Of a stretch of 64,000 nucleotides of DNA, positions 292-34,270 are shown piece after piece (within the stretch, counting starts at the first letter, position 1; each line of letters begins with the position of its first letter). The translations under genes and the position numbers were made by a program. This stretch comes from Polyangiales bacterium (GTDB taxonomy: Bacteria; Myxococcota_A; Polyangia; Polyangiales; Ga0077539), in contig JBGARZ010000003.1 in NCBI GenBank assembly GCA_044229975.1, positions 384,001 through 448,000 of the forward strand, in the 5' to 3' direction. The notes under the pieces were generated by a model that was not told where the DNA came from, did no database searches, and saw only the letters and a list, made by a program, of their open reading frames with translations.

Positions 292-303
292 CGCTCGATC
301 CAT

Positions 304-473
304 CGCAGAACTTCGCGTGGTGGCAGCCCCCGGGGCCTACGCCGCGGCGTTAGCGCGGCGCGCAAACGATCACCTCTCCGGTCCTCGTCCGTCCGACCGG
401 AGAGGTCGTGGTCGCGCGCCGCGCTAACGCCGCGGCGTAGGCCCCGGGGACTGCCACCACGCGAAGCTCTGCG
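304..473. repeat. Long palindromic element (60-bp inverted repeat plus inner 12-bp stem), REP/MITE-like
   Basis: 304-363 is the reverse complement of 414-473 with 2 mismatches. ACCTCTCCGGTC (372-383) pairs with GACCGGAGAGGT (395-406). Confidence 0.9.
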
Positions 474-667
474 GTCACGGAGATCGGACGAGACCTCGTC
501 CGGACGTCGGCGACTGCGGGCGTGGGCGGTCGCGTCCCGCCGGGTAAGGCCGCTCACCGCAGGCGTCGCCGTCGCTCCCGGAGTGGCGCGCCGCCCTCCC
601 CATCCGGGCCCGATGGTACTAAGCCTGCGCCTGCGCCTCGCGACATCCCACCAGGAGCACAGAGCCC

Positions 668-2074
668 ATGCGTCGACCCGATTCCATCGTTGGCCTCACC
701 CTCCACCTCGCCCGCCAGCGCTTCGGCGCCGCCGCCCTCCGCCGCGCCGCCCTCGCCGCTGGCGCCCTCACCCTCGGCGCCGCCACCTTCGTCGCGACCC
801 GCCCCGCTGCACCCGTCGCGCGTGCCACCACCGCGCACGCTCGCCGCGCCCACCTCTGGACCGTCGGCCAGTGCGCCCGCTCTCAGCAGGTCTGCGTCGC
901 CGACACCATGTGCGCCACCGGCGACCGCTGCGTCGACCCGCTGCACCTCGATGCGCGCCTGCAACAGCGCGTCGACACCCATGACGAGGCCCTTCACATC
1001 TATCCGCACGTCGTCCCCGATGGCGACGGCTACGGCGTCGCCTGGACCGCCATCAGCGACGAAGAGGCCGACATCTGGTTCGCGCGCCTCGACGCCGAGG
1101 GCAAGCGCCGCGGCCCCGCGGTGCAGCTCACGCGCGGCGGCTCGGTGCGCCTGCGCCCGCGCGTCGCCCGCGGCCCCGCCGGGTGGGCCGTCGGCTGGAT
1201 CGACGTGAGCGACGACGGCCTCTCCAGCTACCTCCTCCGCCTCGACACCGAAGGCCGCCCGCAAGGCACGCCCGCCCGCGTCGGCAGCGGCGACCTCAAC
1301 CTGCTCTCCGAGGTCGTCGCCAGCGGCGGTCAGTACGGCGTCGCGTACCTGTCGGCGAGCGCGTCCAACCAGATGAGCGTTCACCTCGCGCGCGTCGGCC
1401 AGGACGGTGCGGCCATCGGCGCGCCGCTCACCATCGCCGCCAACCAGCTCGTGCTCGGCACCGTCGGCCTCGCCGCCGCCAACGAGCGCTGGTTCGTCGG
1501 CTGGAACCACTTCGTCCCCCGCGACGAGCGCGCCGAGACCTTCGCCGCCGTCGTCAACGGCACCACCGTCGCGACGCCCGTCCGCCTCGACGCCCACGCG
1601 GGCCGCAACGGCAGCGTCGCGCTCGACTGGTCCAACGGTCAGGTCGGCGCCGTCTGGGAGGACACCTTCGAGGAGACGGACGACGACTCCTTCCGCAACG
1701 GCCTCGTCTTCGGCGGCCTCTCCAACGCCACCACTGCCATCCCCCGCAAGGCGGTCACCGATCGCCGCGGCATCGTCTTCCAGCCCACGCTGTCGGGCGC
1801 CGGGGCGCAGCACGGTCTCGTCTTCACCCGCCTCGACGACGACACGCCGACGGTGCAGTTCGGCCGGCTCAACCCGCAGGGCGCGGTGGTCGGCGCCCTC
1901 GGGCAGCTCAACAGTCGCACCTCCCTCGCCGCCCTCGGCGCGCTCGCGTTCAACGGCCGCAACTTCGCCGCCGCCTGGACGCAGATCGACCGCGACGGCG
2001 TGACCCTCCGCTTCGCCCGCCTCGACGCCAACGGCCGCCGCATCGGCGCCGAAGTGCCCATCTCGCCGCGCTGA
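668..2074 (+). CDS. Secreted or membrane-anchored hypothetical protein with repeated beta-strand modules (beta-propeller-like)
   Basis: 468-aa ORF preceded by AGGAG. It has an N-terminal hydrophobic segment, a small Cys-rich motif and repeated 'YGVAW...FARLDAxG' units. Confidence 0.75.
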   Translation: MRRPDSIVGLTLHLARQRFGAAALRRAALAAGALTLGAATFVATRPAAPVARATTAHARRAHLWTVGQCARSQQVCVADTMCATGDRCVDPLHLDARLQQRVDTHDEALHIYPHVVPDGDGYGVAWTAISDEEADIWFARLDAEGKRRGPAVQLTRGGSVRLRPRVARGPAGWAVGWIDVSDDGLSSYLLRLDTEGRPQGTPARVGSGDLNLLSEVVASGGQYGVAYLSASASNQMSVHLARVGQDGAAIGAPLTIAANQLVLGTVGLAAANERWFVGWNHFVPRDERAETFAAVVNGTTVATPVRLDAHAGRNGSVALDWSNGQVGAVWEDTFEETDDDSFRNGLVFGGLSNATTAIPRKAVTDRRGIVFQPTLSGAGAQHGLVFTRLDDDTPTVQFGRLNPQGAVVGALGQLNSRTSLAALGALAFNGRNFAAAWTQIDRDGVTLRFARLDANGRRIGAEVPISPR

Positions 2075-2278
2075 CGGACTCTCCTTCACCGACCAGATAC
2101 AGGGGTTCAACCCACTGTGGGGCTGGGGTTCGCGCGTTGGCGCTCCCCCGCAATCCCTCTTCCCGTAGTAGCGTCCGCGCACGCCACCGGAGCCGACGGC
2201 CTGCCGCCGCCGCGCTCTCCGGTGCGCCGTTGTCTCCCACTCACCCAACGTCACCCCTCGCAGGAGCACACTCCTCCC

Positions 2279-5200
2279 ATGGCCCGTACAACGGTACCCC
2301 GCTCACCCTGGCGCTCGCTCGCGGTGCTCTGTCTCGCCGCACTCTCCGTCGGTGGAATGGACTGCGCGCAAGAGCGCTCCCCCATCGACCGAACCCGCGA
2401 AAACGCTCTGCCCAAGACGTTCTTCGTCGGCGCGAACTACACCGACCAGGGCGACGACCCGGAGTTCTACGCGAACAACTTCGTCGTCGACGGCAACGCC
2501 GACAACTCCATGATGCCCGTCGGAACCTACGACGACGTCGACCGCATCCGCTGGGAGATCCAGGAGGACTTCCTCCTCGCCCGCAAGGCGTACGAGTACA
2601 TCGAGGGCAGCGACGGACGCGCCCCGGATGTGCGCCGCACGCCCCACGGAATCATCGTCGCGGCGTACCGCATCGAGAGCCACTTCGACATCCGCCGCGG
2701 GTACAACCCCACCACCGGCGAAGAGCTCAACGTCGTCGAGGAGAACGTCTCCGACCGCCGCTGGCACGAGCGCGACAACATCCGCGTCGACTGGTCACGC
2801 AACCTGGTCAACAACCCCGACTGGTCGTGGGTCTGGTACGGCTCGGTCTTCGGTGAGCTGTCGTTTGCCCCCGTCGCGTGGACCGAGACCAACCCCGCCT
2901 CGCCCGACGCCAACAACTTCTGCGAGATGAACGCCGGCATGGTGCGCGGCCCCGACGGCTCCTGCGTCGCCGCCACCAACCCCCGCAATCACCCCGGCGG
3001 CTACCTCGACATCACCTCCAAGTGGCTGGTCAACCCGGAGAACTCCAACCTCTTCGAAGAGCCCATCCCGACCTGCCTCATCGCCAACTTCTTCGCCAAC
3101 GGGCCGGTCTACTCCTGCGCGCAGCAGGAGACCGTCATCCGCACGTCGTTCCGCCGCGTGGAGGACCACGACTTCGAGCCGCTCGAGCTCACCCGCGCCC
3201 CCTACGACCTCGTCGGCGGGCCGCGCGCCGAGCGCAACGGCTACGACCCCGGCTACGGCCTCGTCGACCGCAACTTCCACCGCTTCGCGATGATCCACAA
3301 CCTGTGGCAGCAGTCGCACCTCTCGCCCTCCGTCGCGTGTGACGCCAACACCGACGCCGACAACAACGGCACCGCCGACGCCTGCCAGTCGGCCAACAGC
3401 CGCGGCTCGCAGTGCGACGTCATCAACCACCGCTGCACCATCCCCTACCGCGATCGCACCGTTCGCCCGATCGCCTACTACACCAACACCATCATGCCGC
3501 CGGAGATGCAGGACCACGTCGTGATCCCCGGCCCCGATGGCAACGACACCTACCGCCTGCCCACGGCGGCCGAGGTCTCCAGCCGCTCGTACGTTCGCGG
3601 CGCCTCGGAGGACATCGTCGACTCCTGGAACCGCGCCATCATGGCCTCGGTCGCCAACGCCCGCGAGGTCGAGTGCCGCCGCACCGGCGGTGAGCGCGCG
3701 ACCTGCCACGCGCAGTTCTTCGACAACGCGGAAGAGCCGCAGGGCGACGGCGCCTGGCTCGCCGAGCGCCCGAAGGCCAGCAACGGCCCCGCCGTGGTCA
3801 TCTGCCACAACCCGGTGCGCGCCGACGACTCCACCGCGTGCCGCGAGGTCGGCTACTCCGCGCGCCTCGGCGACGTGCGCTTCAACCACCTCACGTACAT
3901 CCCGGGCCGCAACCGCGCGCCCTTCGGCGGCATCGCCCACTGGGGCTACGACCCCCTCACCGGCGAGGTCGTCTCCAACGGCGGAACCAACATGGGCCGC
4001 TCGGTGGAGTTCGCCGCCGCCCAGCAGCGCGACTACATCCTCCTCGCCCTCGGCGAGCTCGACGTCGCCGACTTCGTCAACGGCGCCGCCGCCCAGCGCT
4101 TCACCACGCAGGTGCGCAACCCCGCGAGCCAGCCGCGCACCCGCTTCAGCGACCGCGAGCTCGACGCCCGCGTCCGCGGCGTCAACGGCGCCAGCGCCGC
4201 CCGCGACCTCGGGCTCACCGTCGCCGCGCAGTCCACGGGCGCGCGTGGCCTCGCCCTGCACGACCAGCAGCTCCTCGACACGTCGTCGCCCGTCGGCGAC
4301 GTGAGCCGCACCGAGACCCGCGTCGAGACGGCCCAGGCCGCCCTGCGCAACACCTCCGTCGAGGCCGACATGGTCGACGAGGGCTGGCTCGCCAACCTCG
4401 GCTTCGATCCGCACTCGCGCCGCACGCAGTCGCTGCTCGACCAGACCTCGCCGCTCCGCCGCATGGACCCCGAGCGCGCCGAGGCCACCTGGAACACCCT
4501 GCTCCAGCGCCTCGAACACCGCGGCTTCTGCTTCCAGGACATGGGCGCGCCGCCGATGATCGGCAGCGTCGACCTCCAGGGCGTGGCCCGCTACTTCGCG
4601 CGCAAGTACGCGAGCAACACGCCCGCCGAGCGCTCGCGCCGCATCTACAACGACCTGCGCATCGAGGCCTACAAGGGCATCGCGCTGCACGAGGTCGGGC
4701 ACTCGCTCGGGCTCTACCACCTGCCCTCGTCGAGCTACGACTCGATGAACTACAACCCGCAGTACTGGCAGCTCCGCACCCGCAACGGCGCGGCCACCCA
4801 GACCTGCACGCCGGTGTGCACCTTCAACAGCTGCACCAACACCCGCAACGCCGACCAGAACAACGACAACTGCATGGGTCCGCGCTACCTCGACCCGGCC
4901 TCGGACGAGGAGCTCGGCCTCGCGGCGGGCAGCGAACCCCACGCGGGCATCGACTACTTCGGCAACACGTCGGTGATGGAATACCAGTGGGAGCGCTTCG
5001 ACGAGACCGTCGGCATCGGCTCCTACGACCACTACGCGATGGGCATCCTCTACGGTCGCGTGATCGAGACGATGGACTCGGACACCACCCGCGGCGGCAT
5101 CCCCGTCTCGGAGCAGGACCGCTTCTCCGCCCGCCTGCGCTCGCAGCTCTCGGACCTCGACCAGATCCAGTACTCCGACCCCGTGCTCGGTGAGACCGGC

Positions 5201-6832
5201 GTGCTGCCGATCCACTACACCGAGCTCGCGCGTCAGCTGAACATCTTCAGCCCGTCGCAGTGCCGCGACGCCACGCCCGAAGAGCGCGCCCGTTATGCGT
5301 GGCGCCTCGTCGACGGGAAGATCTGCCGCCTGCACCCGCGCGACCACGCCGCGATGGGCGACTTCGAGTCGGGCCCGACCTCGTCGACCTCGACCCGCGA
5401 CGCGCCCTCGTGGCGCACCGTCGAGACCGCGCGCACGGGCGGCAACCACCTCCGCTGGGGCTACCGCGTCGCCTGGGACATCGGCACCGGCTACCCCCAC
5501 ATCAACTACTTCGACCAGGGCGCCGACATCTACGAGGTGACCCAGTCGATGATCCGCAAGTACGAGCTGACCTACCCGTCGCTCTACTTCCGTCGCAACC
5601 AGCGCGAGTACTCGCAGTGGGGCATCCCCGCGTACCTCGCGCGCAACATCTTCCGCCGCCTGCGCGGCTACCACTGGAGCGTCGCGCGCGACTCGGCCTA
5701 CTACTCGTCGGCCTTCAGCGACGCGCTCTATCAGCGCATCTCACGCGACGACAACTGGCTCCGTCCGCTGCTCGTCTCGGGCACCGAGATCTTCGACTTC
5801 TTCGCGAAGGTCATCCTCCGCCCCGAGGCCGGCGTGTACGAGCCCATGGCCGATCAGCTCCGCGGGCGACGACCCATCTTCGACGCGGCGGAGGAGGGCA
5901 GCGACATGACGCCGCAGTTCGAGGTGGGCCTCGTCGACGGCCGCTTCATCGGCGAGGAGTACGACAACTCCACCGGCGGGTCGTGGGACTACCACTCGTA
6001 CCTGATCCACGCGGGCTCGTACCCGGAGAAGCCCCTCGCGGCCATCATGATGACCGACACGCGACCGACGTTCTCGTCGATCTCGCGCGGGCTGTACCTC
6101 GACGGGCGCGAGTTCCAGGTGAACTTCCGCACCGACATGCCGCAGGCGTTTGACCGACTGCTCGGCGGTGTTCTCGCCGAGGACTGGGACACCGTCGCGA
6201 TGCACGTCCCCACGGTGTCGGGCGGCGGAACCTCCGGGCTCCCCGCCCTCCAGCCCGCGGTGCTCCCGCTCTGGACGGTGGGCACCAACGTGCTGCCGCA
6301 GCAGCCCACGCGCCCCGCCGGATCGCAGCTCCTCTTCCCCAACATCGGGTACCGCCAGCAGCTCCCGATGGTGGTGTGGTCGATGCTGTTCTCGTCGCTC
6401 AACAGCAACCTCGACACCATCCACCGCACGCGCATCTGGTCGGAGGGCGGCCCCGAGCAGATCGACGTCGCCGAGGCCGAGCGCATCCGCTTCCGCAACC
6501 CGGAGTCGGGCATCACCTACGTCGCGCGCCGCTACGGCAACGACCAGGTCGACGGCGAGACCATCGACCGCGGCATCTCGTCGCGGATGATCGCCCACGC
6601 CAACGAGCTGCTCATCGACACCTACCAGGTGCGCGTCGACGCGACGCTCCAGCCCATCTACGCCGCCGACGGCTCGGTCGAGGTCGTCTACGACGCCCGC
6701 AACCAGCTCGTCCCGGCGCAGTCCGACCCGCGTCGGCAGACCACGGCGGTGACCCGCTTCCGCAACTACGTCGGCCTCATCGACTCCACCCGCTACGCCT
6801 CGCGGCTGCTCGGGTACGGAACCCTCCGCTGA
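2279..6832 (+). CDS. Very large secreted or lipoprotein zinc-dependent metalloprotease (metzincin-like)
   Basis: ATG 2279 follows CAGGAG. There is a signal peptide with Cys ('LSVGGMDC'), the zinc motif HEVGHSLGLYH (HExxHxxGxxH), a downstream Met-turn-like 'SVMEY' and Cys-rich inserts. Confidence 0.85.
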   Translation: MARTTVPRSPWRSLAVLCLAALSVGGMDCAQERSPIDRTRENALPKTFFVGANYTDQGDDPEFYANNFVVDGNADNSMMPVGTYDDVDRIRWEIQEDFLLARKAYEYIEGSDGRAPDVRRTPHGIIVAAYRIESHFDIRRGYNPTTGEELNVVEENVSDRRWHERDNIRVDWSRNLVNNPDWSWVWYGSVFGELSFAPVAWTETNPASPDANNFCEMNAGMVRGPDGSCVAATNPRNHPGGYLDITSKWLVNPENSNLFEEPIPTCLIANFFANGPVYSCAQQETVIRTSFRRVEDHDFEPLELTRAPYDLVGGPRAERNGYDPGYGLVDRNFHRFAMIHNLWQQSHLSPSVACDANTDADNNGTADACQSANSRGSQCDVINHRCTIPYRDRTVRPIAYYTNTIMPPEMQDHVVIPGPDGNDTYRLPTAAEVSSRSYVRGASEDIVDSWNRAIMASVANAREVECRRTGGERATCHAQFFDNAEEPQGDGAWLAERPKASNGPAVVICHNPVRADDSTACREVGYSARLGDVRFNHLTYIPGRNRAPFGGIAHWGYDPLTGEVVSNGGTNMGRSVEFAAAQQRDYILLALGELDVADFVNGAAAQRFTTQVRNPASQPRTRFSDRELDARVRGVNGASAARDLGLTVAAQSTGARGLALHDQQLLDTSSPVGDVSRTETRVETAQAALRNTSVEADMVDEGWLANLGFDPHSRRTQSLLDQTSPLRRMDPERAEATWNTLLQRLEHRGFCFQDMGAPPMIGSVDLQGVARYFARKYASNTPAERSRRIYNDLRIEAYKGIALHEVGHSLGLYHLPSSSYDSMNYNPQYWQLRTRNGAATQTCTPVCTFNSCTNTRNADQNNDNCMGPRYLDPASDEELGLAAGSEPHAGIDYFGNTSVMEYQWERFDETVGIGSYDHYAMGILYGRVIETMDSDTTRGGIPVSEQDRFSARLRSQLSDLDQIQYSDPVLGETGVLPIHYTELARQLNIFSPSQCRDATPEERARYAWRLVDGKICRLHPRDHAAMGDFESGPTSSTSTRDAPSWRTVETARTGGNHLRWGYRVAWDIGTGYPHINYFDQGADIYEVTQSMIRKYELTYPSLYFRRNQREYSQWGIPAYLARNIFRRLRGYHWSVARDSAYYSSAFSDALYQRISRDDNWLRPLLVSGTEIFDFFAKVILRPEAGVYEPMADQLRGRRPIFDAAEEGSDMTPQFEVGLVDGRFIGEEYDNSTGGSWDYHSYLIHAGSYPEKPLAAIMMTDTRPTFSSISRGLYLDGREFQVNFRTDMPQAFDRLLGGVLAEDWDTVAMHVPTVSGGGTSGLPALQPAVLPLWTVGTNVLPQQPTRPAGSQLLFPNIGYRQQLPMVVWSMLFSSLNSNLDTIHRTRIWSEGGPEQIDVAEAERIRFRNPESGITYVARRYGNDQVDGETIDRGISSRMIAHANELLIDTYQVRVDATLQPIYAADGSVEVVYDARNQLVPAQSDPRRQTTAVTRFRNYVGLIDSTRYASRLLGYGTLR

Positions 6833-21998: not shown

Positions 21999-23477
21999 TT
22001 AGGTGGTGACGTGGGAGGGCACGTCGTCGGTCGCGGGCAACCATACCGTGAACAGCGCCCCGGGCAGGTCGCTCGACGCGTCGCCCTGGTCGACCACCAC
22101 GCGCCCACCGAGCGCCTTCACGATGCCTGCGACGACCGCGAGCCCGAGGCCCGTCCCGCCCTCCCCCAGGCGCGTGGAGAAGAACGGATCGAACACCTTG
22201 CCGCGCACGGCCTCGGCGACGCCGGGCCCCGCGTCCTGCACCACGGCCGTCACGCCCGCGTCCGCGCGTCGCACCGCCACGTGTAGCCTTCCCCCCGCGG
22301 GCTGCGCCTGCACCCCATTGAGGCAGAGGTTGAAGAGCACCTGAAACACCTGGTCGCGCGGCGCCCCGACCATGAACCGCCCACCCTCCGGGACGTCCAC
22401 CGTCGCCCGCACCTTCGCGCGACGGCACTCCTGCCCGAGAAACCCGACGACCTCCTTGGCCACCGCGCCGAGGTCGCACTGCGCCACCACGCCCGTCGGC
22501 GTCGGCCGCGTCAGCGAGAGAAACTGCGACATCACCCGCGCGATGCGCTCGCTCTGCGTCGCGATGCTCTGCAAGCTCGCCCGCAGGTCGTCGGGAATGT
22601 CCTCGCGCTCCGCCGCCACGCGCGCCCTCCCGAGGATCACGTTGAGCGGCGACCCGATCTCATGGGCCAGCGTCGCCGCCACCTGGCCGGCCACCGCGAG
22701 CATCTGCGCGCGGTGCAGCTCGACCTCCACCTTCGCCCGCGCGGCCTCCTCGCCCGCGAGGCTCTCCTGCGCGCCCTTGAGCGACCGCGTCAGCGCGTTG
22801 AAGGCATCACCCAGCCGCCGCAGCTCGTCCCTCTCGGCCGTCACCACGGTCTCCAGGTCGCCGCCCGCGACCCGCGTCACGCCGTCGACGAAGCGCTCGA
22901 CGGGCTCGGTCATCGAGCGCGCGATACGCGCCGCGAGCAGCGCCAGCACCGCCGTGAGCACGCCCGCCACGGTGGCGAGCTGGAGTCCCCACGCGCGCAG
23001 CGCGGCGCGCAGGTAGCCGAGGTCGCGCATCACCACCATCGCCCCGATGGGCGTCGCCTGCGACGACCGCACCAGCTCCACCCTCACCAGGATCTCCTGG
23101 CCTCCGAGCACCCGCGTCTGCTGCCGGTCGGTGCGCGCGCGAAAGGCCTCGCGCACCATCTGGCGGAGGGCCAGACGTTGCTGGTTGGCGACCCGCGAGC
23201 CACCGAGCCACTGCCCGTCCGTGTCGTAGATGCCCACTCCGAGCACACCCGTGTCGTGCGTGAGGCGCTCGGCGAGCGCCCGCAGCTCCGACATCGAGAC
23301 GTCCACCGGGAGCGCCGTCATCGCCTCGCCCAGCAGCGTGGCCGTCTCGCGCACCTCGGCCTCGACCTCGACGAGCATCTCCTGCCGGTGGAAGCGCGCT
23401 CCGAGCACGCCGTACACGCCCAGGCACACCACCACGGGGGCGGTGAGCATGAGCCAGTAGCGGTCGACGAGGCGCAT
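21999..23477 (-). CDS. Membrane HAMP-domain sensor histidine kinase
   Basis: Two TM segments, HAMP, H-box 'LAHEIGSPLN', N-box 'NLCLNG', G1 'DAGPG', F 'FDPFF' and G2 'GTGLGL'. Confidence 0.95.
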   Translation of the reverse strand: MRLVDRYWLMLTAPVVVCLGVYGVLGARFHRQEMLVEVEAEVRETATLLGEAMTALPVDVSMSELRALAERLTHDTGVLGVGIYDTDGQWLGGSRVANQQRLALRQMVREAFRARTDRQQTRVLGGQEILVRVELVRSSQATPIGAMVVMRDLGYLRAALRAWGLQLATVAGVLTAVLALLAARIARSMTEPVERFVDGVTRVAGGDLETVVTAERDELRRLGDAFNALTRSLKGAQESLAGEEAARAKVEVELHRAQMLAVAGQVAATLAHEIGSPLNVILGRARVAAEREDIPDDLRASLQSIATQSERIARVMSQFLSLTRPTPTGVVAQCDLGAVAKEVVGFLGQECRRAKVRATVDVPEGGRFMVGAPRDQVFQVLFNLCLNGVQAQPAGGRLHVAVRRADAGVTAVVQDAGPGVAEAVRGKVFDPFFSTRLGEGGTGLGLAVVAGIVKALGGRVVVDQGDASSDLPGALFTVWLPATDDVPSHVTT

Positions 23478-23526
23478 CGGGTGGTCGCCGTCGTAGCAGA
23501 GACGCGGCCCCGGTGGGGTGCGACGG

Positions 23527-25080
23527 TCAGCGGTGGACGCGGAGCACGTAGCGGAGGCGCACCTGGCTCTCCTTGTAGAGCAGGTACTCCGACTGGGTGA
23601 AGGTGCTCTTGGCGTATTGCGACTGCTTGATGGGCTTGCCCTGCGGGACGACGATCTTCTTGCCGTCGATGGTGATGGTGATGTCGTCCTTGGGGTCGGG
23701 CTCGGTGTGGCCGCGGGCGACGATGCAGTCGAAGCCCTTGGGCGCTTCCTTGAGCGACGAGTCGTCGCGCACGATGGTGTGCTCCTTCCCGAGCGCCGCC
23801 TCCGCCAGGAACATCACGCCCGTGCTGCCGGCCCAGCCCACGTAGTTGACGGACTTGCCGTTCTCCGAGGCGAGGTAGATGCCCTTGCCGACGCGTCCGC
23901 CCGAGTGCGGCATGATGCGCAGGCCCGACCCGAGGATGGCGGCCACCACGGCGACGTTGGTGCCGTGCCAGAGCAGCTTGCGCTCGCCGATGGTGTCGTG
24001 GGCCTTGAACCGGTCGCCCTCACCGTGGCGGTTGAGGCGAAACACATCCACCAGCTTGAGGTTGTAGTAGCTGGCCCCGGTGGCCTGCATGTACTTGAGG
24101 ATCCAGGCGTACTCGTCCGAGGTCGGGTCGATGTACTCGAGGTCGGCCTTGATCTTCTTGTAGTTCTCGTCGGCGGGGTGGGGCACCGCCTCGGGCTCGG
24201 GCCCGGCCGCGGCGGCCTGCTCCATGCTCAACGCGATCTCGATGTCGTTGAGCACGTTGAGCATCTCCACCTTCTTGTGGAGCAGCTCCGGGGTGTTGAT
24301 GGGCGGCGGAATCCGTCGGCCGAAGCTGTGCGGGATGAGCGTGTAGAACTTCGACGAGACCGTGTTGATGAGGTTGGCGTTGTTGGCGTTGATCGCCTGC
24401 TCCAACTCTTCGAGGACGTCGTAGCCCTTCTTCACCTGCGACTTGGAGATCTGCCCGAGGGGCATCTTCTTCACGTCGATGTCGAAGGACGCCATCGCGC
24501 CCTTGAACATGTCCTGGTCGAAGATGAGCTGCATGAAGTTCTGGACGGACTGGTGCAGCGCGCTCGGGAGGAGCTTCTTGGTCACCTTCGGCTGAAGCGA
24601 CGCAGCCGCCTTGTCGATGGCCTTGAGCTTCTCCTCGACCTCGGCGGCCTTCGCGGTGTCGGCCGAGCGCTCGATCTCGATGAGCGCGTACTTGCCCGCC
24701 TTGGCGACGAAGTTCTTGCGGTTCGCCCAGGCGTTGCCGGACTTGTCCTTGAACTTCGACTCGAAGTCCGAGATGGCGCTCGCCGCCGCCGGGTACGGCC
24801 CCTTGAGCGCCGTCTGCCCGACCTCGCCCACGCGCCCCCAGCGGTTCCACGCGTAGAACTTCCCGCCCGACTCCAGCACCTGGATCACATAGAACTTGTT
24901 GTTGTTGGCGCCGATGTTCGTCTGGTTGAGCATGGCGTCGTAGTCCTCGTGGACCGTCGCCTTGCTCTTCAGGGGGCAGTTGTCATCGACCGGGATGTTG
25001 ACCGCTCCTGCCGCGGGCGCGGCCGGGGTCGCAGCCGCCGCAGGGGTCGCCGTCGTCGTCGTCGTCTTCGCCTTCGCCAT
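23527..25080 (-). CDS. Poly/mono(ADP-ribose) polymerase with WGR, regulatory (helical) and catalytic domains, PARP3-like
   Basis: WGR 'LNQTNIGANNNKFYVIQ...WNRWGRVGEVGQ'; regulatory 'KKMPLGQISKSQV...SSKFYTLIPHSFG'; catalytic 'LLWHGT', 'GKGIYLA', 'QSEY' (H-Y-E triad). 517 aa from ATG 25080. Confidence 0.95.
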   Translation of the reverse strand: MAKAKTTTTTATPAAAATPAAPAAGAVNIPVDDNCPLKSKATVHEDYDAMLNQTNIGANNNKFYVIQVLESGGKFYAWNRWGRVGEVGQTALKGPYPAAASAISDFESKFKDKSGNAWANRKNFVAKAGKYALIEIERSADTAKAAEVEEKLKAIDKAAASLQPKVTKKLLPSALHQSVQNFMQLIFDQDMFKGAMASFDIDVKKMPLGQISKSQVKKGYDVLEELEQAINANNANLINTVSSKFYTLIPHSFGRRIPPPINTPELLHKKVEMLNVLNDIEIALSMEQAAAAGPEPEAVPHPADENYKKIKADLEYIDPTSDEYAWILKYMQATGASYYNLKLVDVFRLNRHGEGDRFKAHDTIGERKLLWHGTNVAVVAAILGSGLRIMPHSGGRVGKGIYLASENGKSVNYVGWAGSTGVMFLAEAALGKEHTIVRDDSSLKEAPKGFDCIVARGHTEPDPKDDITITIDGKKIVVPQGKPIKQSQYAKSTFTQSEYLLYKESQVRLRYVLRVHR

Positions 25081-25168
25081 GGCCTCGCCTTTCACTCCGG
25101 CGCGGTCCGTCCACCGCGCACCATTGGGCGTCGGGTTGTACATCCTCCCGCGCCCCGAACGGAACCCG

Positions 25169-26641
25169 CTATGTGCGCGGCCCTCGGCCGCCGACACGCC
25201 ACACCGCGACGAGCCCGACGGAGAGCGCCACCGCCGCCGCCCACCACAGGCCCTTGCCCTGTGACGCAGGCGCCGGGGTCGTCGGAGCCGCCGCCGCGCG
25301 CGCTGTCCCCGCATCCGCGGGCGCCTCTTCGATGGACGGGATGTCGTGCCCCACGGGCGTCGGCGCAGGCGCCGCTGGAGGCGTCGCCGCCGGGCCAGTC
25401 GTATCGACGCCCTCGCAGGTGTGGGCGCAGCGCGCGACGCCACCATCGGGCTGCTGCACGGTGCCGCAGCGATCGTCGGCCAGGCCCCACCGCGCGAGGC
25501 CGCCCGGCGCCGCGAGGTCGACCTGTCGGTTGCCGCACAGGGTGTTGGAGCGCAGCGCCGCCGTCACGCACCGAGCGCCCCGCGCGTATCCGACCCGCGC
25601 CGCCGCACGGCAGTCCTGCGCGAACGACACCACCTGGGCCTGGCTGTTGACCTGTCGGTCGATGGCGAGCTCACGTTCGCCCTCGCGGCGCTTCCACACC
25701 TGGCCCGTCGCGGGACAGGCATAGTTGGGAACGCACCCCGGAATCCCGAGCGCTCCCATCACGTCAGGCCCGCAGTGCCGCAGGTACGCGTCGAAGCGCA
25801 CCTGCGCGGGGCTCCCCTCGGCGCCCGACGGTCGCGCCTCGATGACCGCACCCTGCCTGCGCTCGTCGGCGAGCCAGCTCTCGTGCACGAGGCACCCGCC
25901 GCACCCCGACGAGTAGAGCATCAGCGTCCCGGCGGCGACGCCCGCGGGCGGCGGCGTGCACGAGCAGTCGTCCCACGGCCCGCCCTGCGCGCCGGCCCCC
26001 GTCGCGCGAACGTCCCCGAGCAGCACACCCTGGTCGTTGCCCGACACCGTGTTGCCGATGAACACCGGCATCGCATCGCACGCCGCCACGCCGACACCGC
26101 CGCCCGTGATGTCCGACCGGACGATCACCACACCGGGGTTGGTGATGCCCGACGGCGCCGCGCAGCGACCCGCCTCGTCGGCGCCCAGCGAGACGCCCAC
26201 GCGGTTGCGCGAGAGTGACGCGCGCACGACGCGGAGGTTGCTCGACGCCTCGGCCCGGATGCCGGTTCGGGCGTCGTTGACCACGTCGGCGAAGAGCGTC
26301 GCGCCGCGGGCGTTGGCTACGCGAATGCCGACGCCGCCCTCCTGCACATGGACGTTGCGGACGAGCACGTCGTCGGCCGCCACCTCGACGCCCACGGCCG
26401 CACCACGCAGCGTGTGCCGCATCCCATCGAAGGTCGCGCCCCGGCCCGTGATGCGAATGCAGGTGGTCGCGCGGGTCGCGTCGATGTCGCCGGCGAGCAC
26501 GGCGCTCGCCCCCGCCGTCGCCAGGGCCGTCGTGCACGACTCGCAGGAGTCACACTGCCCACCCGGAACCTGCGCGCCCGCCATCGCGGGCATCGTCGCG
26601 AGCGCGAGGAGGGTGGCGATGAATGCGAGGTGGGCGTTCAT
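25169..26641 (-). CDS. Secreted Cys-rich right-handed beta-helix protein with C-terminal membrane anchor
   Basis: Signal peptide MNAHLAFIATLLALATMPAMAGA, repeated 'GV.V....V' beta-helix rungs, an internal 'LYSSGCGGC' segment, a Pro/Ala linker and a terminal TM with basic tail. ATG overlaps the purD stop. Confidence 0.8.
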   Translation of the reverse strand: MNAHLAFIATLLALATMPAMAGAQVPGGQCDSCESCTTALATAGASAVLAGDIDATRATTCIRITGRGATFDGMRHTLRGAAVGVEVAADDVLVRNVHVQEGGVGIRVANARGATLFADVVNDARTGIRAEASSNLRVVRASLSRNRVGVSLGADEAGRCAAPSGITNPGVVIVRSDITGGGVGVAACDAMPVFIGNTVSGNDQGVLLGDVRATGAGAQGGPWDDCSCTPPPAGVAAGTLMLYSSGCGGCLVHESWLADERRQGAVIEARPSGAEGSPAQVRFDAYLRHCGPDVMGALGIPGCVPNYACPATGQVWKRREGERELAIDRQVNSQAQVVSFAQDCRAAARVGYARGARCVTAALRSNTLCGNRQVDLAAPGGLARWGLADDRCGTVQQPDGGVARCAHTCEGVDTTGPAATPPAAPAPTPVGHDIPSIEEAPADAGTARAAAAPTTPAPASQGKGLWWAAAVALSVGLVAVWRVGGRGPRT

Positions 26642-27900
26642 GAGGGCTCCCAGGTTCCGACATCGCGGCGGTAGCGACCGCGGGGCCAGTCGATGGTGGC
26701 GACGGCGGCGTAGGCACGGCGCGCGGCCTCGGCGAGCGACGGCGCGAGCGCGACCACGTTGAGCACGCGGCCACCCGACGAGCGCAGCACCCCGGCGTCG
26801 TCGTGAGCGGTCCCGGCGTGGAAGACCTCGACGCCGAGCGCCTTCGCACGCTCGATGCCGCTGATGCGGTCGCCCGTCACGGGTCGGTCGGGGTAGCCCG
26901 GCGCGGTCATCACCACGCAGACCGCGCTGCCCGGTCGCGGCGGCCGCGGGGTCTGTGCAACGGCTCCGCCCGCCACGCCGACGATGGCGTCGAGGAGCCC
27001 TTGCCCCTGAGCCATCATCAACGCCTGACACTCGGGGTCACCGAAGCGCGCGTTGTATTCGAGCAGCATCGGTCCGTCCTTGGTGAGCATCACGCCCGCG
27101 TAGAGCACGCCGCGAAAGGGGCACCCCTCGGACTTCATCGCGTCGACGGTGGGGCCGACGATGGTCGCCATGATCTGCTCGATCAGCGCGGGCGTTTCCA
27201 GCGGGTGCGGGGTGATGGCGCCCATGCCCCCGGTGTTGGGTCCGGTGTTGCCGTCGCCGACGCGCTTGTAGTCCATGGCCGTCGCGTAGAAGCGCGCCGT
27301 GTCGCCGTCGGAGAGCGCGAAGAGGCTCATCTCGGGCCCCACGAGGAAGTCTTCGATCACCACGCTGCGCCCCGCCTCGCCGAAGCGCCCGGCGCGGAGC
27401 GCGTCGTCCACGGCCGCGAGCGCGTCGTCCACGGTCTCGGCGACGGTGACCCCCTTGCCCGCGGCGAGCCCGTCGGCCTTCACCACGACGGGTGCGCCGT
27501 GCGCTCGCACGAAGGCGCTCGCCTCATCGGCGTCGGTGAAGCGACGGTAGGCCGCCGTCGGGATGCCGTACTTCGCGCACAGGTCCTTCAAGAAGCCCTT
27601 GGAGCCCTCCAGGCGGGCGGCCGCCGCGCTCGGGCCGAACACCGGGATACCCAGTGCGGTAAGCCGATCGGCGAGCCCCGCGACGAGCGGCGCCTCGGGG
27701 CCCACCACGACGAGCGACATGCCCTTCGCGAGCGCGACGAGTCCGTCGACGTCGGTCGCCGCGACGGCGACGCAGCGCGCGACCTCGGCGATGCCCGGGT
27801 TGCCCGGCGCCACCACCAGCTCCTGCACCCGCGAGTCCCTGGAGAGCGCCCACGCGAGGGCATGCTCCCGACCACCACCACCGACCAGCAGTACTCTCAC
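26638..27900 (-). CDS. purD: Phosphoribosylamine--glycine ligase
   Basis: 'VGGGGREHALAW', 'VVGPEAPL', 'VVKADGLAAGKGV', 'GPNTGGMGA' and 'EYNARFGDPE'. Confidence 0.97.
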   Translation of the reverse strand: MRVLLVGGGGREHALAWALSRDSRVQELVVAPGNPGIAEVARCVAVAATDVDGLVALAKGMSLVVVGPEAPLVAGLADRLTALGIPVFGPSAAAARLEGSKGFLKDLCAKYGIPTAAYRRFTDADEASAFVRAHGAPVVVKADGLAAGKGVTVAETVDDALAAVDDALRAGRFGEAGRSVVIEDFLVGPEMSLFALSDGDTARFYATAMDYKRVGDGNTGPNTGGMGAITPHPLETPALIEQIMATIVGPTVDAMKSEGCPFRGVLYAGVMLTKDGPMLLEYNARFGDPECQALMMAQGQGLLDAIVGVAGGAVAQTPRPPRPGSAVCVVMTAPGYPDRPVTGDRISGIERAKALGVEVFHAGTAHDDAGVLRSSGGRVLNVVALAPSLAEAARRAYAAVATIDWPRGRYRRDVGTWEPS

Positions 27901-31155: not shown

Positions 31156-31233
31156 GTCACCGGGTTGATACACCGAAGAGCCCGCACGGTGCCTTGACCC
31201 CGTGCGCGAGGCGCCCGTACCGTCCGCCCCAAC

Positions 31234-32472
31234 GTGGTCGCGGCGATTGTCTCGGTGGGTTCGGAAATCACTCGTGGCGAGGTCGCCGACAGCAACGCCG
31301 ACTGGCTCGCGGCGCGGATGTCTTCGCTGGGCTTCGAGGTGCGCGAGCGCGCCTGCGTGGCCGACGACCGTGCGCTGCTCGCGGCCACCATCGCGCGGCT
31401 CGGTCAGAGCGCCAGCGTGGTGGTGGTGACCGGCGGCCTCGGCCCGACGGGCGACGACGTCACCATCGACGCCGTGGCCGACGCGCTCGGGGTGCCTCGG
31501 GTCGTCGACGAGTCCCTGGAGGACGTCTCGCAGCGACCGGGTTCGCAGCCCGTCGACCCGCGCTCGCTGGAGCTTCCGTCGGGCGCCGTGTGGCTGGGCC
31601 GCACCATCCGCGAGCGGGCCTTCGCGGTGCGCGTGGGCGAGGCGCAAGGGGTGTTTCTGCCAGGCGATCCGGCGAGCATGGAGCGGGTCTTCGAGGCGTC
31701 GGCGCTGCGGCACATCATCGCCCTCGCGAAGCCGCGCGATGCCCGCGCGCACCTGCGCACCTACGGTCTCAGCGAGGCCGAGCTCGATGCCCGGGTGCGC
31801 GACCTCGCGACCGGGCGGGTGTCCTTCGGCTTCCGCGCGCACGCCCCCGAGGTGACGCTGACGGTGCGTGCGACCGGGGAAGATCACACCGACGCGACCG
31901 AGCGCCTCGGCCGGGTGGTGGGCGAGGTGCGCGGGCGGCTCGGGGCGGTGGTGTTTGGCGACGACGAGCAGACCTACGCCGCCTGCGTGGGGCGCGCGTT
32001 GCGCTCGCGGGGCTACTCGCTCGCCGTCGCCGAGAGCTGCACGGGCGGGCTCATCGGCTCGATGCTGACGGCAGTGTCCGGGTCGAGCGACTACCTCCTC
32101 CTCGACGCGGTGACCTACTCCAACGCCTCCAAGGAGCGCGTGCTCGGCGTCTCCACCGAGCTGCTGCTCGGGCACGGCGCGGTGTCGCGCGAGTGCGCGC
32201 TCGCCATGGCCGCCGGAGCGCGACGCGTGACCGGAGCCGACCTCGCGCTCGCCGTGAGCGGCGTCGCGGGCCCCACCGGCGGCAGCGCGGAGAAGCCCGT
32301 CGGGCTGGTGTTTCTCGCGGTGGAGAGCGCGGCGGGCGTCACCGAGCGGGTGGCGCGCTTCGAGGGCGACCGGGCGATGGTGCAGCGGCAGGCGGCGTAC
32401 CTCGCGCTGGCGATGGTGCGCGAGGCGTGCGGCGGCCCGGTGCCCACGGCGCTCCCGTCCGTGTGCGGCTGA
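31234..32472 (+). CDS. cinA: CinA family protein (MoCF-like domain plus NMN deamidase PncC domain)
   Basis: 'SVGSEITRGEVADSN', 'TGGLGPTGDD', 'AVAESCTGG' and 'SGVAGPTGGSAEKPVG'; upstream of thpR-recA. Confidence 0.93.
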   Translation: MVAAIVSVGSEITRGEVADSNADWLAARMSSLGFEVRERACVADDRALLAATIARLGQSASVVVVTGGLGPTGDDVTIDAVADALGVPRVVDESLEDVSQRPGSQPVDPRSLELPSGAVWLGRTIRERAFAVRVGEAQGVFLPGDPASMERVFEASALRHIIALAKPRDARAHLRTYGLSEAELDARVRDLATGRVSFGFRAHAPEVTLTVRATGEDHTDATERLGRVVGEVRGRLGAVVFGDDEQTYAACVGRALRSRGYSLAVAESCTGGLIGSMLTAVSGSSDYLLLDAVTYSNASKERVLGVSTELLLGHGAVSRECALAMAAGARRVTGADLALAVSGVAGPTGGSAEKPVGLVFLAVESAAGVTERVARFEGDRAMVQRQAAYLALAMVREACGGPVPTALPSVCG

Positions 32473-32482
32473 GACGCGGGCG

Positions 32483-33058
32483 ATGGAGACCGTACGGGCG
32501 TTCATCGGCTGCGTGCTCGACCTGGGTGCGACCCGCAAGGTGGTGGAGCTCTCGCGCGCCACCCGCTCGCTCGCCGAGGCGGCGGGCTGGGAGGCGCGCT
32601 GGGTCCCCGCGCCCAACCTGCATTTCACGCTGCGTTTCCTGGGAGATATCGACCAGGGACTCGTCGAGCCCGTGGCCGAGGCGATGCGCTCCGTCGCGCG
32701 CGCCACGCCCGCGTTGGTCGTGGGCGTCGGCGGCCTCGGCGCCTTCCCCGATCGCGATGCGCCGAGGGTCTTGTACGCCGAGGTGACGCGCGGCCACGAC
32801 GCCCTCGCGCGCCTCGCCGGGCGCATCGAGACTGCGCTCGCAGCCATCGGTTTTGCGAAGGCCGAGCGGCCCTTCGTGGGGCACATGACGCTCGGGCGTG
32901 TTCAGGTATCGCGCGGCGCGCTCGGCGCCGTCACGCCGCCCAATTCGGACTGCGGCGCGGGCACCGTCAACGCGGTCACGCTCTACCGGAGTGACCTGTT
33001 TTCCAGCGGCGCGGAGTACGTCACGCTCGCGCGCGCCCCTCTCGGCTCCGAGGGCTAG
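32483..33058 (+). CDS. thpR: RNA 2',3'-cyclic phosphodiesterase (2H family)
   Basis: Two HxT motifs, 'NLHFTLRFLG' and 'GHMTLGR'; cinA-thpR-recA context. Confidence 0.92.
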   Translation: METVRAFIGCVLDLGATRKVVELSRATRSLAEAAGWEARWVPAPNLHFTLRFLGDIDQGLVEPVAEAMRSVARATPALVVGVGGLGAFPDRDAPRVLYAEVTRGHDALARLAGRIETALAAIGFAKAERPFVGHMTLGRVQVSRGALGAVTPPNSDCGAGTVNAVTLYRSDLFSSGAEYVTLARAPLGSEG

Positions 33059-33193
33059 AAGACAGGATATGTCACCAGCATCGGGTGACGCTCTTGTGGT
33101 TTGTTCAGTAGCGGGCCATACATCGAGTCCGTGACGGGGCGCCGGTTGAGCGCCACCCCCCAACGACGCCACTGACTCACAGGAGAGACGACC

Positions 33194-34270
33194 ATGGATG
33201 ACAACCGCAAGAAGGCTCTTGAACTCGCTCTGCTCGGCATCGAGAAGCAGTACGGCAAGGGCGCCGTGATGCGCCTCGAGAGCGAATCGAAGGAGAAGCC
33301 GGACGTCGCGGTCATCGCGACGGGCTCGGTGTCGCTCGACATCGCGGTGGGCATCGGCGGCTATCCCCGCGGGCGCATCGTCGAGATCTACGGGCCGGAG
33401 AGCTCGGGCAAGACGACCCTCACGCTGCACGGCATCGCGGAGGCGCAGAAGGCCGGCGGGGTGTGCGCCTTCATCGACGCCGAGCACGCGCTCGATGTGA
33501 ACTACGCGCGCAAGCTCGGGGTGAAGGTCGACGAGTTGCTGGTGTCGCAGCCCGACAACGGCGAGCAGGCGCTGGAAATCGCCGACATGCTCATCCGCTC
33601 CGGCGCGGTCGACATGATCGTGGTCGACTCGGTGGCCGCGCTGGTGCCGAAGGCGGAGATCGAGGGCGAGATGGGCGAGCAGCTCCCCGGCCTCCAGGCG
33701 CGCCTCATGAGCCAGGCGCTGCGCAAGCTCACGGCGACGGTGCACCGCTCCAACGCGCTGCTGGTGTTCATCAACCAGATCCGCATGAAGATCGGCGTGA
33801 TGTTTGGCAACCCGGAGACCACCACGGGCGGCAACGCGCTGAAGTTCTACGCGTCGATGCGCCTCGACGTGCGCCGCATCGGTGCGTTGAAGAACGGTGA
33901 GACCGCCGTCGGCAACCGCACCAAGGTGAAGGTGGTGAAGAACAAGATGGCCGCCCCCTTCCGCGAGGTGGAGTTCGACATCCTCTACGGGCAGGGCATC
34001 TCGCGCACGGGCGACATCCTCGACATGGCCGCCGAGGCCGGCATCGTGGAGAAGGCCGGCGCCTGGTACTCGTACAAGGGCGAGCGCATCGGGCAGGGCC
34101 GCGAGGCCGCCAAGACCTTCATCGAGGAGCGCCCCGAGATGATGGCGAAGATCGAGCACGAGGTGCTCGTGAAGCACGGCGTCCGCAAGGCCACGACGAC
34201 CAACGGCGCCGCGACGGACAAGGTCACCGAGGCCGCCGCGAAGAAGGAGCGCCCGAAGGCGCAGGCCTGA
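33194..34270 (+). CDS. recA: Recombinase A
   Basis: '[16 protein letters not shown]', 'FIDAEHALD', '[12 protein letters not shown]' and 'GGNALKFY'; AGGAG RBS. Confidence 0.99.

Follow-up and report, generated by a model that had tools for sequence, protein, structure and literature searches.

An old and maintained PARP3-like gene of likely eukaryotic origin in a family of myxobacteria

We describe a gene in the window (the whole stretch of 64,000 nucleotides of a Polyangiales bacterium that was analysed) whose 517-aa product belongs with PARP3 and not with PARP1/2, an assignment supported by scores against PDB entries, sequence motifs and two maximum-likelihood (ML) trees. The protein is most likely a DNA-break-activated, PARP3-type (mono-)ADP-ribosyltransferase, as predicted from its sequence. 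The gene is old and maintained, under long-term retention in one myxobacterial family, and its likely source is an ancient acquisition from a eukaryote. For this reading as a whole, that is, an intact PARP3-family transferase that responds to breaks, makes a mono- or short oligo product and stems from an old eukaryotic capture, we estimate a probability of roughly 0.6.

The PARP3-family gene lies on the minus strand (23527..25080) and comprises 517 codons and a TGA stop, with the ATG at 25080 and the stop at 23527-23529; its identification draws on the translation, three Pfam domains, the PARP3 score and the tree placement. The mechanical open reading frame reaches further upstream, to 25446, and would give 639 aa. 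We rejected this longer form: its extra part is Arg-rich filler typical of 71% GC DNA, and orthologs start aligning at residues 1-27 of the 517-aa form. The protein begins with an Ala/Thr/Lys/Pro-rich tail (aa 1-27; 25000..25080), which is predicted to be disordered (pLDDT below 50 at residues 1-24), and aa 1-46 form its least conserved part in the clade alignment (mean conservation 0.47). Three domains follow, all encoded, like the tail, on the minus strand: a WGR domain (aa 47-124; 24709..24942; Pfam PF05406, E 1.8e-22) with W81-G82-R83; a helical regulatory (autoinhibitory) domain, PARP_reg (aa 173-307; 24160..24564; PF02877, E 4.8e-42), for which the structural model has helices at 177-309; and an ADP-ribosyltransferase catalytic domain (aa 321-515; 23536..24120; PF00644, E 1.2e-47), also identified by comparing the model with PDB 3c49. 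The H372-Y402-E498 triad is intact, and each of its residues is invariant in 121/121 clade members. Catalytic His372 (minus-strand codon 23965..23967) aligns with the His of other PARPs, Tyr402 (23875..23877, minus strand) marks the end of a donor loop (aa 389-402) that is short and PARP3-type by loop comparison, and the codon of catalytic Glu498 (23587..23589, minus strand) was read directly. Pfam matched only PF05406, PF02877 and PF00644 in the 517-aa protein, with no zinc finger, BRCT or SAP domain, and NCBIfam had no model for it. Pfam and translation therefore agree with the sequence-only reading of this DNA, which had described a 517-aa WGR, helical and catalytic PARP with an H-Y-E triad and neither zinc fingers nor BRCT. 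An AlphaFold model of the protein (pLDDT 84.9) has three folded parts. Its best fold match in Foldseek is PARP3 (3c49; TM 0.91 normalised to the target, 51% identity), and the WGR-CAT assembly of the model as a whole resembles DNA-bound PARP1 (4opx_C; TMq 0.78).

Comparison with PDB sequences using phmmer gave 392 bits for the human PARP3 catalytic fragment over residues 168-516 of the query, versus 225 for PARP1 and 172 for PARP2; the PARP3 WGR domain scored 113 bits. All the PARP3 stretches quoted in the sequence-only reading are present, and the near-identity to human PARP3 that it asserted is seen, residue by residue, in the alignment to this catalytic fragment. The short 'RIMPHSGGRVGKGIY' loop, which had been called PARP3-type, indeed agrees with the PARP3 rows, whereas PARP2-like eukaryotic rows have five more residues, other bacterial PARPs have longer loops and the PARP1 alignment shows a 4-residue gap in the query at the donor loop. 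Both this loop and the 'HGTNVAV' motif are identical to those of the Danio and Ptychodera PARP3 rows. W81, G82 and R83 are invariant in 54/54 bacterial and eukaryotic PARP3 rows, and in other bacterial PARPs in the alignment YGR or NGR replaces WGR at this motif. The nearest ESM Atlas clusters, which we used as a lead only, carry PARP3 names. The bacterial protein resembles eukaryotic PARP3 (human PARP3/ARTD3, PDB 3c49 and 2eoc), a subfamily of the DNA-dependent (Clade 1) PARPs, in its WGR, helical and ART order with neither zinc fingers nor BRCT, in having a short N-terminus that is unstructured, in the H-Y-E triad, and in the motifs 'RWGRVGE' and 'HGTNVAV' and a short 'RIMPHSGGRVG(K/R)GIY' loop; animal PARP3s are 50-56% identical to it over the whole length. 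The two differ in their N-terminal tails, which are unrelated, and in their cellular setting: the bacterial host lacks chromatin, and no Ku was found in the 93%-complete window genome. The partners of eukaryotic PARP3 cannot be assumed here. Named PARP3 orthologs span animals, a chytrid, Amoebozoa and green algae.

The window protein sits in a bacterial clade that is monophyletic, carries Myxococcota and Planctomycetota labels, comprises at least 120 clusters at 62-98% identity and is at least 99% conserved at 149 of the 517 positions of the clade alignment. Archangium and Pirellulaceae labels occur among the matches. ML trees were computed from 63 hand-picked rows under the models LG+G4 and LG+C20 PMSF; several of the near rows are metagenome proteins of unknown domain of life, an organism name being attached to just 14 of the 30 proteins checked. 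Some unnamed relatives are 800-1000 aa long and carry N-terminal extensions. Both trees unite PARP3 and the bacterial clade (53 rows, support 100/99) apart from PARP1/2-like proteins, and the bacterial clade itself is supported by 100/99 (LG+G4) and 100/97 (LG+C20 PMSF). In the C20 tree, Amoebozoa diverge first, and all other rows, bacteria included, group with support 92/90. Both ML trees place the bacterial clade inside the named eukaryotic PARP3 family, but the AU test (LG+G4) does not separate 'nested within' from 'sister to': a topology that keeps the eukaryotic PARP3s together and the bacteria apart is not rejected (lnL difference 20.95, p 0.268). PARP3 and the bacterial clade together nest within eukaryotic PARP2-like rows (Euglena, Heterostelium, Choanoeca, Panicum and others). 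The other bacterial PARPs that were placed, namely plasmid copies of Aneurinibacillus, B. thuringiensis, Pseudomonas and Vibrio (22-25% identity to the window protein) and the genome's two paralogs, stand on long branches outside all eukaryotic rows, and the whole eukaryotic assemblage intervenes (support 97). The window protein groups neither with the four named plasmid-borne proteins nor with the two paralog types; the PARP3 grouping anticipated from the sequence, as opposed to one with bacterial PARPs, is borne out for the bacterial PARPs sampled.

Two further explanations were considered: PARP3 could have been born in bacteria and taken up by eukaryotes, or contaminating eukaryotic DNA could have been joined to a contig of bacterial origin. 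The AU result, which keeps a eukaryotic PARP3 clade without bacteria, is compatible with the former, and the window genome is metagenome-assembled (93% complete, about 3% estimated contamination); we nevertheless consider these explanations very improbable. PARP3 and the bacterial clade nest inside eukaryotic PARP2-like rows while other bacterial PARPs lie outside, named PARP3s occur in the eukaryotic groups listed above, and the clade was found in 3/401 and 1/301 sampled genomes of its two phyla. These frequencies come from searches of the sampled genomes; a single-protein pattern scan of genome contigs gave nine loci and was not used for the distribution. The gene has no introns and a GC3 of 0.965, and bacterial genes flank it on both sides in five congeners. 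In addition, a 9,918-base contig from an independent DNA run (X2) spans 22900-25697. Because the gene order repeats in the five congeners and this independent contig spans the locus, the contig is not chimeric, a concern that had been raised with the original reading. Contigs from RNA libraries cover 23931-24990 (X12) and 23187-25020 (X13); their sources are relatives about 92% identical, and they are a weak hint at expression in those relatives, as such libraries can hold DNA. No sequencing run contained over 0.17 of the sampled words, and we make no habitat claim.

Full-length orthologs are present in 15 of the 25 genomes of the family and in 0/16 genomes of the order's other families. In five congeners the gene order around the PARP gene is the same, and the gene itself is 89-92% identical, compared with 74-76% for the flanking kinase and 61-65% for the beta-helix gene. 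One congener retains only PARP codons 12-63, between the same neighbours, and has lost the PARP3-like gene by deletion. The codons are host-like, as had been noted: with the GC3 given above, the use of synonymous codons ending in C or G matches that of the neighbours, and synonymous sites are fully host-like. The lower whole-gene GC (0.648 versus 0.66-0.75; K/(K+R) 0.73) is due to amino-acid make-up only.

We propose that a bacterium captured eukaryotic PARP3 once, long ago, and that vertical descent in the family and rare passage between Myxococcota and Planctomycetota would have followed. Transfer from a eukaryote to a bacterium, which the sequence-only reading had suggested, appears to be the parsimonious direction; since the AU test does not reject eukaryotic monophyly, this direction draws on the distribution and the higher-level nesting. 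It was not, however, a transfer into the window organism itself, because the gene is a member of a large old clade, vertical within the family and scattered across two phyla. Bacterial PARPs of eukaryotic origin have already been published, and the window gene adds a well-preserved member, not a new kind.

Among the published proteins, HaPARP of Herpetosiphon aurantiacus and CdPARP of Clostridioides difficile CD160 have the same three-domain order, are thought to have been horizontally acquired from eukaryotes and show DNA-dependent activity in vitro (PMC4245714, PMC5966428, PMC8120803). Both are absent from our trees and are set against the window clade by these descriptions, not by sequence. 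In most bacterial PARPs, according to a 2018 survey (PMC5966428), the first WGR position is occupied by Tyr, whereas the window protein has Trp; the same survey lists PARPs of Plesiocystis, Enhygromyxa and Sandaracinus. The window genome also encodes two other PARPs, one on contig C38, with a Macro gene directly downstream, and one on contig C24. These proteins consist of WGR, PARP_reg and PARP domains and are present in the same bacterial groups as the window clade, but they are 27-30% identical to the window protein, carry YGR instead of WGR, have longer donor loops (the C24 type with an insertion after the catalytic Tyr) and form separate long-branch clades.

Homology alone leads us to expect that the window enzyme is activated by DNA breaks and uses NAD+. 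For human PARP3, activation by 5'-phosphorylated nicks and breaks needs the WGR Trp W101 as well as N80 and Y150, and its heat stability is reportedly much lower than that of PARP1 and PARP2 (PMC4081085). The bacterial protein has invariant N59/N61 and Y131 at about the right spacing to be candidate counterparts of human N80 and Y150. In our proposed mechanism, DNA breaks would switch the enzyme on: by analogy with human PARP1-3 biochemistry as outlined in the same source (PMC4081085), the WGR domain would touch the 5' side of a nick or break via W81, a contact that would relax the autoinhibition by the helical domain and make the NAD+ site accessible. ADP-ribose from NAD+ would then be placed on the enzyme itself, on other proteins or on phosphorylated DNA ends; ADP-ribosylation of 5'-phosphorylated DNA ends by PARP3 in vitro is described in PMC8385414. 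The product would be mono- or short oligo-ADP-ribose and not long PAR, since the donor loop is of the PARP3 type and no PARG is detectable in 8 of the 15 carrier relatives. Removal of the modification would fall to the genome's Macro or ADP-ribosylglycohydrolase proteins, of which there are six and four, respectively.

The H-Y-E triad, intact here, is that of polymerases, and mono- and poly-ADP-ribosylation cannot be told apart from sequence. The enzyme might instead resemble HaPARP and CdPARP and be a genuine poly(ADP-ribose) polymerase, making PAR after DNA damage that a bacterial-type PARG takes down, a possibility that we regard as rather unlikely. Both bench-tested bacterial PARPs make PAR and each works with a PARG that reverses it (PMC5966428, PMC8120803), and contig C2 of the window genome carries a PARG-like gene (TIGR02452/PF10021). 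However, that match is limited to model positions 88-265 of 266, the donor loop and the 'HGTNVAV' motif are PARP3-type, and PMC8385414 describes human PARP3, whose triad is the same, as a mono-transferase. Distribution also argues against a polymerase: across the 25 genomes of the family, seven have both the PARP3-like gene and TIGR02452, eight the PARP3-like gene only, seven the PARG only and three neither, so that PARG is missing in 8/15 carriers and present in 7/10 non-carriers. The PARP3-like gene thus does not co-occur with PARG in this family, which sets the window clade apart from HaPARP and CdPARP. None of the genome's PARG, Macro and ADP-ribosylglycohydrolase matches lies on the window's contig (C11), consistent with the earlier remark that the window holds no PARG or macrodomain eraser.

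The surroundings of the gene were considered as context. Directly downstream lie a HAMP/HisKA/HATPase histidine kinase, identified by Pfam (21999..23477, minus strand, at a distance of 49 bp), and an NtrC-type regulator; upstream, at 88 bp, is a beta-helix protein with a weak NosD-like Pfam match (25169..26635, minus strand; E 2e-5; start codon uncertain), followed by purD. The bacterial neighbourhood first reported therefore holds for the two-component pair, but purD is not adjacent, as the beta-helix protein lies between. The kinase is a neighbour of the PARP gene in this genus alone, the two not being adjacent in any other genus or phylum examined, and the flanks at eight other loci are unrelated or housekeeping genes (rpoC, sulfatases, a PLP enzyme, transaldolase, MFS transporters). 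No partner gene is common across genera in the nine loci (the window and these eight), and because no neighbour is conserved in this way, no pathway partner is indicated. We asked whether the PARP gene works together with the kinase and regulator, or with cinA-recA at a distance of 6-9 kb, and took the adjacency as chance, since it is genus-only and missing at other loci. A sigma-54 promoter, sought because an NtrC-type activator follows, was likewise dismissed: TGGCAC-N5-TTGC with at most two mismatches gave 38 matches versus 53 expected, and none within 25081-25168 upstream of the PARP gene. Between 21500 and 28500 there were 0 sigma-70 promoter-like sites and three terminator-like sites versus 1.8 expected, none of them intergenic.

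This context also bears on an anti-phage role, which had been put forward from the sequence and in which the enzyme would sense phage DNA ends and either drain NAD+ or cap the ends with ADP-ribose. ADP-ribosylation serves in other defence systems. Incoming phage genomes have free, often 5'-phosphorylated ends of the kind that PARP3 modifies in vitro (PMC8385414). Against this, PADLOC assigned 0 families to the protein, its position is fixed within the genus outside any defence-island or mobile context, its sequence evolves more slowly than those of its neighbours, and the flanks at the eight other loci share no partner. Among 72,556 plasmid and 50,697 phage records there is no close copy; matches in phage records are confined to the catalytic part and are 27-34% identical to the query. 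A defence role is thus without support from conserved neighbours, PADLOC matches or PARG co-occurrence, and we consider it improbable.

Taken together, these results describe a PARP3-family gene as an example, dated by its amelioration, of a signalling enzyme of eukaryotes that bacteria have kept under strong selection. They also show that three PARP lineages of separate origin can coexist in a single bacterial genome, a refinement of the published view, in which PARPs are sporadic and single. Among the three DNA-damage PARPs of humans, PARP3 is understood least. A bacterial ortholog that is 50-56% identical to PARP3, keeps every diagnostic motif and has over 100 natural variants could be tractable for structural and mechanistic work. 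Some carriers may be culturable, judging from the Archangium and Pirellulaceae labels, and a bacterial host allows a clean genetic test of PARP3-type ADP-ribosylation without histones, HPF1, Ku or APLF. Tentatively, we can imagine a more specific history, in which a myxobacterial ancestor captured the gene once, planctomycetes later received it, and the enzyme persisted near-unchanged as a stand-alone sensor of 5'-phosphorylated nicks that writes mono-ADP-ribose directly on DNA ends, or modifies itself, in cells lacking chromatin, Ku and a dedicated PARG. If this were true, these bacteria would offer the simplest natural setting in which to learn the purpose of PARP3 chemistry.

The gene at window positions 23527–25080 (minus strand; ATG at 25080, TGA at 23527–23529) translates into 517 codons, exactly where the sequence-only reading had placed it, and encodes a PARP3-family enzyme that is intact and conserved. 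A longer mechanical ORF reaching 25446 was rejected; its upstream part is Arg-rich read-through in 75–78% GC DNA, and alignments of relatives begin at residues 1–27 of the shorter form. Pfam recovered the architecture proposed from the sequence, a WGR domain (47–124), a helical regulatory domain (PARP_reg, 173–307), and a catalytic PARP domain (321–515), with E-values of 1e-22 to 1e-47 and no further Pfam domains. Among all PDB chains, the top phmmer match is the human PARP3 catalytic fragment (392 bits, query 168–516); catalytic fragments of PARP1 and PARP2 score lower (about 225 and 172 bits), and the match to the WGR domain of PARP3 reaches 113 bits. The alignment to the PARP3 fragment bears out the nearly identical stretches that had been noticed in comparison with human PARP3, and the query shows a four-residue gap facing the PARP1 loop. 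An AlphaFold2 model built from 54 sequences (mean pLDDT 84.9, pTM 0.76) is disordered only in the first 24 residues and the WGR–HD linker. Its best Foldseek match is PARP3 (3c49; TM 0.91 of target, 51% identity), and the whole WGR–CAT assembly resembles DNA-bound PARP1 (4opx_C, TMq 0.78).

Phylogenetic analysis united the bacterial proteins with eukaryotic PARP3. HMMER, run against 1.84 billion representatives, returned one bacterial representative at 62% identity, followed by proteins at 37–53% and a few shorter partial rows of up to 65%. The named matches are eukaryotic (Bryopsis, Luapelamoeba, Rhizophlyctis “PARP3”, a millipede “PARP3”, and an amphipod, with Euglena, Eutreptiella, Protostelium, Heterostelium, Choanoeca, and Panicum ranking lower). 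A profile made from six eukaryotic proteins gave 120 hits, the majority named PARP3, from fishes, amphibians, reptiles, hemichordates, echinoderms, cnidarians, sponges, Limulus, Balamuthia, and Ulva. By BLASTP, the query is 56% identical to the PARP3 proteins of Ptychodera and Rhopilema, 54% to those of Danio and Balamuthia, and 34–41% to the PARP2-like outgroup. A first FastTree comprised 142 rows, 28 of 170 having been left out with fewer than 400 aligned residues. The careful trees used 63 hand-chosen rows: 16 bacterial, 24 named PARP3-type eukaryotes, 15 unnamed, and 8 outgroup. Both IQ-TREE runs supported PARP3 plus bacteria at 100/99, and the bacterial clade itself at 100/99 (LG+G4) and 100/97 (LG+C20 PMSF). 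Amid the myxobacterial-labelled rows, four planctomycete-labelled rows join one unnamed row in a subclade supported at 100/99. In the C20 tree, Amoebozoa split first, the other 51 rows including the bacteria hold together at 92/90, and a link to a green-algal group has 82/96; on this short backbone, the 63-row trees single out no sister group. Under LG+G4, a single clade of the 24 named eukaryotic PARP3s, apart from bacteria and outgroup, was not rejected by the AU test (lnL difference 20.95, p 0.268), so that the bacterial clade is placed either within PARP3 or as its sister. Five unnamed metagenome proteins of 800–1000 aa (P0129, P0133, P0136, P0145, and P0146) have a PARP3-like C-terminal half and a 350–450-aa N-terminal extension, and fall in the trees with the Ulva and Bryopsis proteins.

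A competing possibility was that the protein groups with other bacterial PARPs. By tblastn, plasmids of Bacillales, Pseudomonas, and Vibrio carry WGR-PARP genes with only 22–25% identity over most of the query. A 38-row PMSF tree, a quick search involving long branches, took in four of these plasmid PARPs, the source genome's two paralogs, three named relatives of one paralog, and a second PARP from Kofleriaceae, but not the bench-tested enzymes of Herpetosiphon aurantiacus and Clostridioides difficile. Among these rows, the other bacterial PARPs have long branches and fall outside the assemblage of eukaryotic proteins (97), and the window's clade is still nested in PARP3 (99). Sequence motifs agree with this tree: the query and PARP3 share RWGRVGE, HGTNVAV, and the short RIMPH-SGGRVG loop already noticed as PARP3-type, and other bacterial PARPs have YGR or NGR, HGSR/HGTR, and longer loops. 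A Tyr at the first WGR position was described for most bacterial PARPs in a 2018 survey (PMC5966428).

The source genome contains three PARP lineages, which is a useful refinement of the known picture. The second PARP (locus L012, G000:C38:251973–255494; positions 292–2028, plus strand) combines WGR, PARP_reg, and PARP domains, shares 27% identity with the window's protein, and is followed after 12 bp by a Macro gene (2040–2822, plus strand). Its type forms a large clade of its own at 65–95% identity (labels Pendulispora, Labilithrix, and Gemmataceae), one member of which, P0514 (753 aa), fuses PARP to Macro. The third type (locus L013 on contig C24, ORF 1192–2778, minus strand) carries YGR instead of WGR, has about 20 residues inserted behind the catalytic Tyr, and is matched by the Pfam PARP model only over the first half of that model. 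On a Kofleriaceae contig, this type (L036:1364–2968, plus strand) is arranged in tandem with the PARP3-like gene, starting directly behind its stop codon; 3 kb beyond, there is an AlkZ-like DNA glycosylase.

The surroundings of the gene are ordinary for a bacterial chromosome. The contig is at least 448 kb long, in a genome of 10.0 Mb (39 contigs, 93% complete, 3% contamination). Neighbours comprise lysS, a release factor, a Ser/Thr kinase, a TPR protein, a beta-helix protein, purD, DUF4403, cinA, and recA, together with an NtrC-type regulator and its histidine kinase, the latter 49 bp downstream of the PARP gene; purD and this two-component system had been recognized beforehand. The beta-helix gene lies 88 bp upstream; its 620-aa mechanical ORF (25169–27031, minus strand) overlaps purD (26638–27900, minus strand) by about 390 bases in a different frame, which places its real start below 26638. 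The protein itself matches NosD/beta-helix models only weakly and is conserved in congeners. As for the host-like codons reported earlier, synonymous choices follow the neighbours' pattern (for example, AAG for Lys in 48/48) and GC3 is 0.965, the highest among twelve genes measured (the NtrC row, out of frame, not counted). Overall GC is 0.648 versus 0.66–0.75 in neighbours, a difference that arises at codon positions one and two (K 9.3%, R 3.5%). The order beta-helix, PARP, kinase is identical in five congeners, and a 9,918-base contig from an independent DNA sequencing run covers 22900–25697 with 228 differences; the locus is therefore not an assembly chimera. The cinA (MoCF, KH, and CinA/PncC domains) and recA pair at 31198–34270 (plus strand), 6–9 kb from the PARP gene, is suggestive for NAD+ or DNA-damage biology, with no linkage to PARP in other genera. 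Metatranscriptome-library contigs of relatives, about 92% identical, cover 23187–25020, and one of 2,594 bases extends into the kinase gene, a weak hint of expression and co-transcription.

Within the family, full-length orthologs are present in 15 of 25 genomes including the source (63–92% identity, no stops; 41 relatives compared), and in 0/16 genomes from the order's 16 other families. In five congeners, PARP identity (89–92%) exceeds that of the adjoining kinase (74–76%) and beta-helix gene (61–65%), which indicates strong purifying selection. In one congener (G008:C30:24000–35000, about 5020–5445 of the locus), purD, beta-helix, kinase, and NtrC remain in order, and PARP is reduced to codons 12–63 plus a stop; with some 1.39 kb missing, this is a loss by deletion. 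Loci outside the genus are flanked by rpoC and a STIG1-like protein, sulfatases, a Cys/Met PLP enzyme, an MFS transporter, transaldolase, or FtsJ, with no partner gene shared. In an even sample of the phylum, 3/401 genomes were positive at E ≤ 1e-100, all three in the same family; a sample of the Pirellulaceae carrier's phylum yielded 1/301, the carrier itself. In a large protein collection, at least 120 clusters match at 62–98% identity, and each of them has all three domains; names are attached to only a few, which are Deltaproteobacteria, Kofleriaceae, Archangium, Planctomycetia, Planctomycetales, and Gemmataceae. No copies above 60% identity were found in 72,556 plasmid or 50,697 phage records.

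The window had appeared to lack a PARG or macrodomain eraser, and none of the genome's eraser matches lies on its contig; elsewhere, the genome has six Macro matches, four ADP-ribosylglycohydrolase matches, a weak eukaryote-type PARG_cat_C match (39.6 bits), and a single bacterial-type PARG match (G000:C2:37415–37939, minus strand; L014:1144–1797, a 234-codon open frame). The latter covers only model positions 88–265 of 266, those of relatives span 2–265, and it may be N-terminally truncated or mis-started. Ku was not found in the source genome (93% complete). Across the family, 7 genomes have both PARG and the PARP3-like gene, 8 PARP only, 7 PARG only, and 3 neither; these counts, from related and hence non-independent genomes, describe rather than test, and show no co-occurrence. 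The suggested anti-phage role found no support in genomic context, conservation pattern, or known-system models; PADLOC gave zero matches for the protein. NCBIfam has no model for it. On B. thuringiensis plasmid NC_018878.1 (L038, 4123–6197), a PARP adjoins a CBASS-like pair made up of a nucleotidyltransferase gene and a gene with a SAVED domain, so that the distant types of bacterial PARP, unlike the window's gene, may be located in defence neighbourhoods.

In PARP1–3, the WGR Trp touches the 5′ side of the break and signals to the helical domain; PARP3 prefers 5′-phosphorylated nicks and attaches single ADP-ribose units, removable by Macro- and ARH3-type hydrolases, to itself, proteins, and DNA 5′-phosphates (PMC4081085, PMC8385414). 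By analogy, W81 would contact the 5′ side of a DNA break and relay this to the helical domain, whose loosening would open the NAD+ site. The PARP3-type loop and the missing PARG link make a predicted mono- or oligo-transferase the better guess; that the enzyme acts as a polymerase seems unlikely to us.

Perina et al, 2014 (PMC4245714) described 28 bacterial PARPs from six phyla, including Plesiocystis pacifica, mostly Clade-1-like and ascribed to horizontal transfer. Garcia-Saura et al, 2018 (PMC5966428) brought the total to 72, including Enhygromyxa, Sandaracinus, Plesiocystis, and Deltaproteobacteria MAGs, and a 2021 review gives the same picture (PMC8120803). A full-text search, spanning few subscription journals and the 2018 survey apart from its figures, found no paper assigning a bacterial clade specifically to PARP3 or describing such a clade in Planctomycetota. 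Bacterial PARPs as such are already known; the refinement here is a PARP3-orthologous, strongly conserved, PARG-independent clade.
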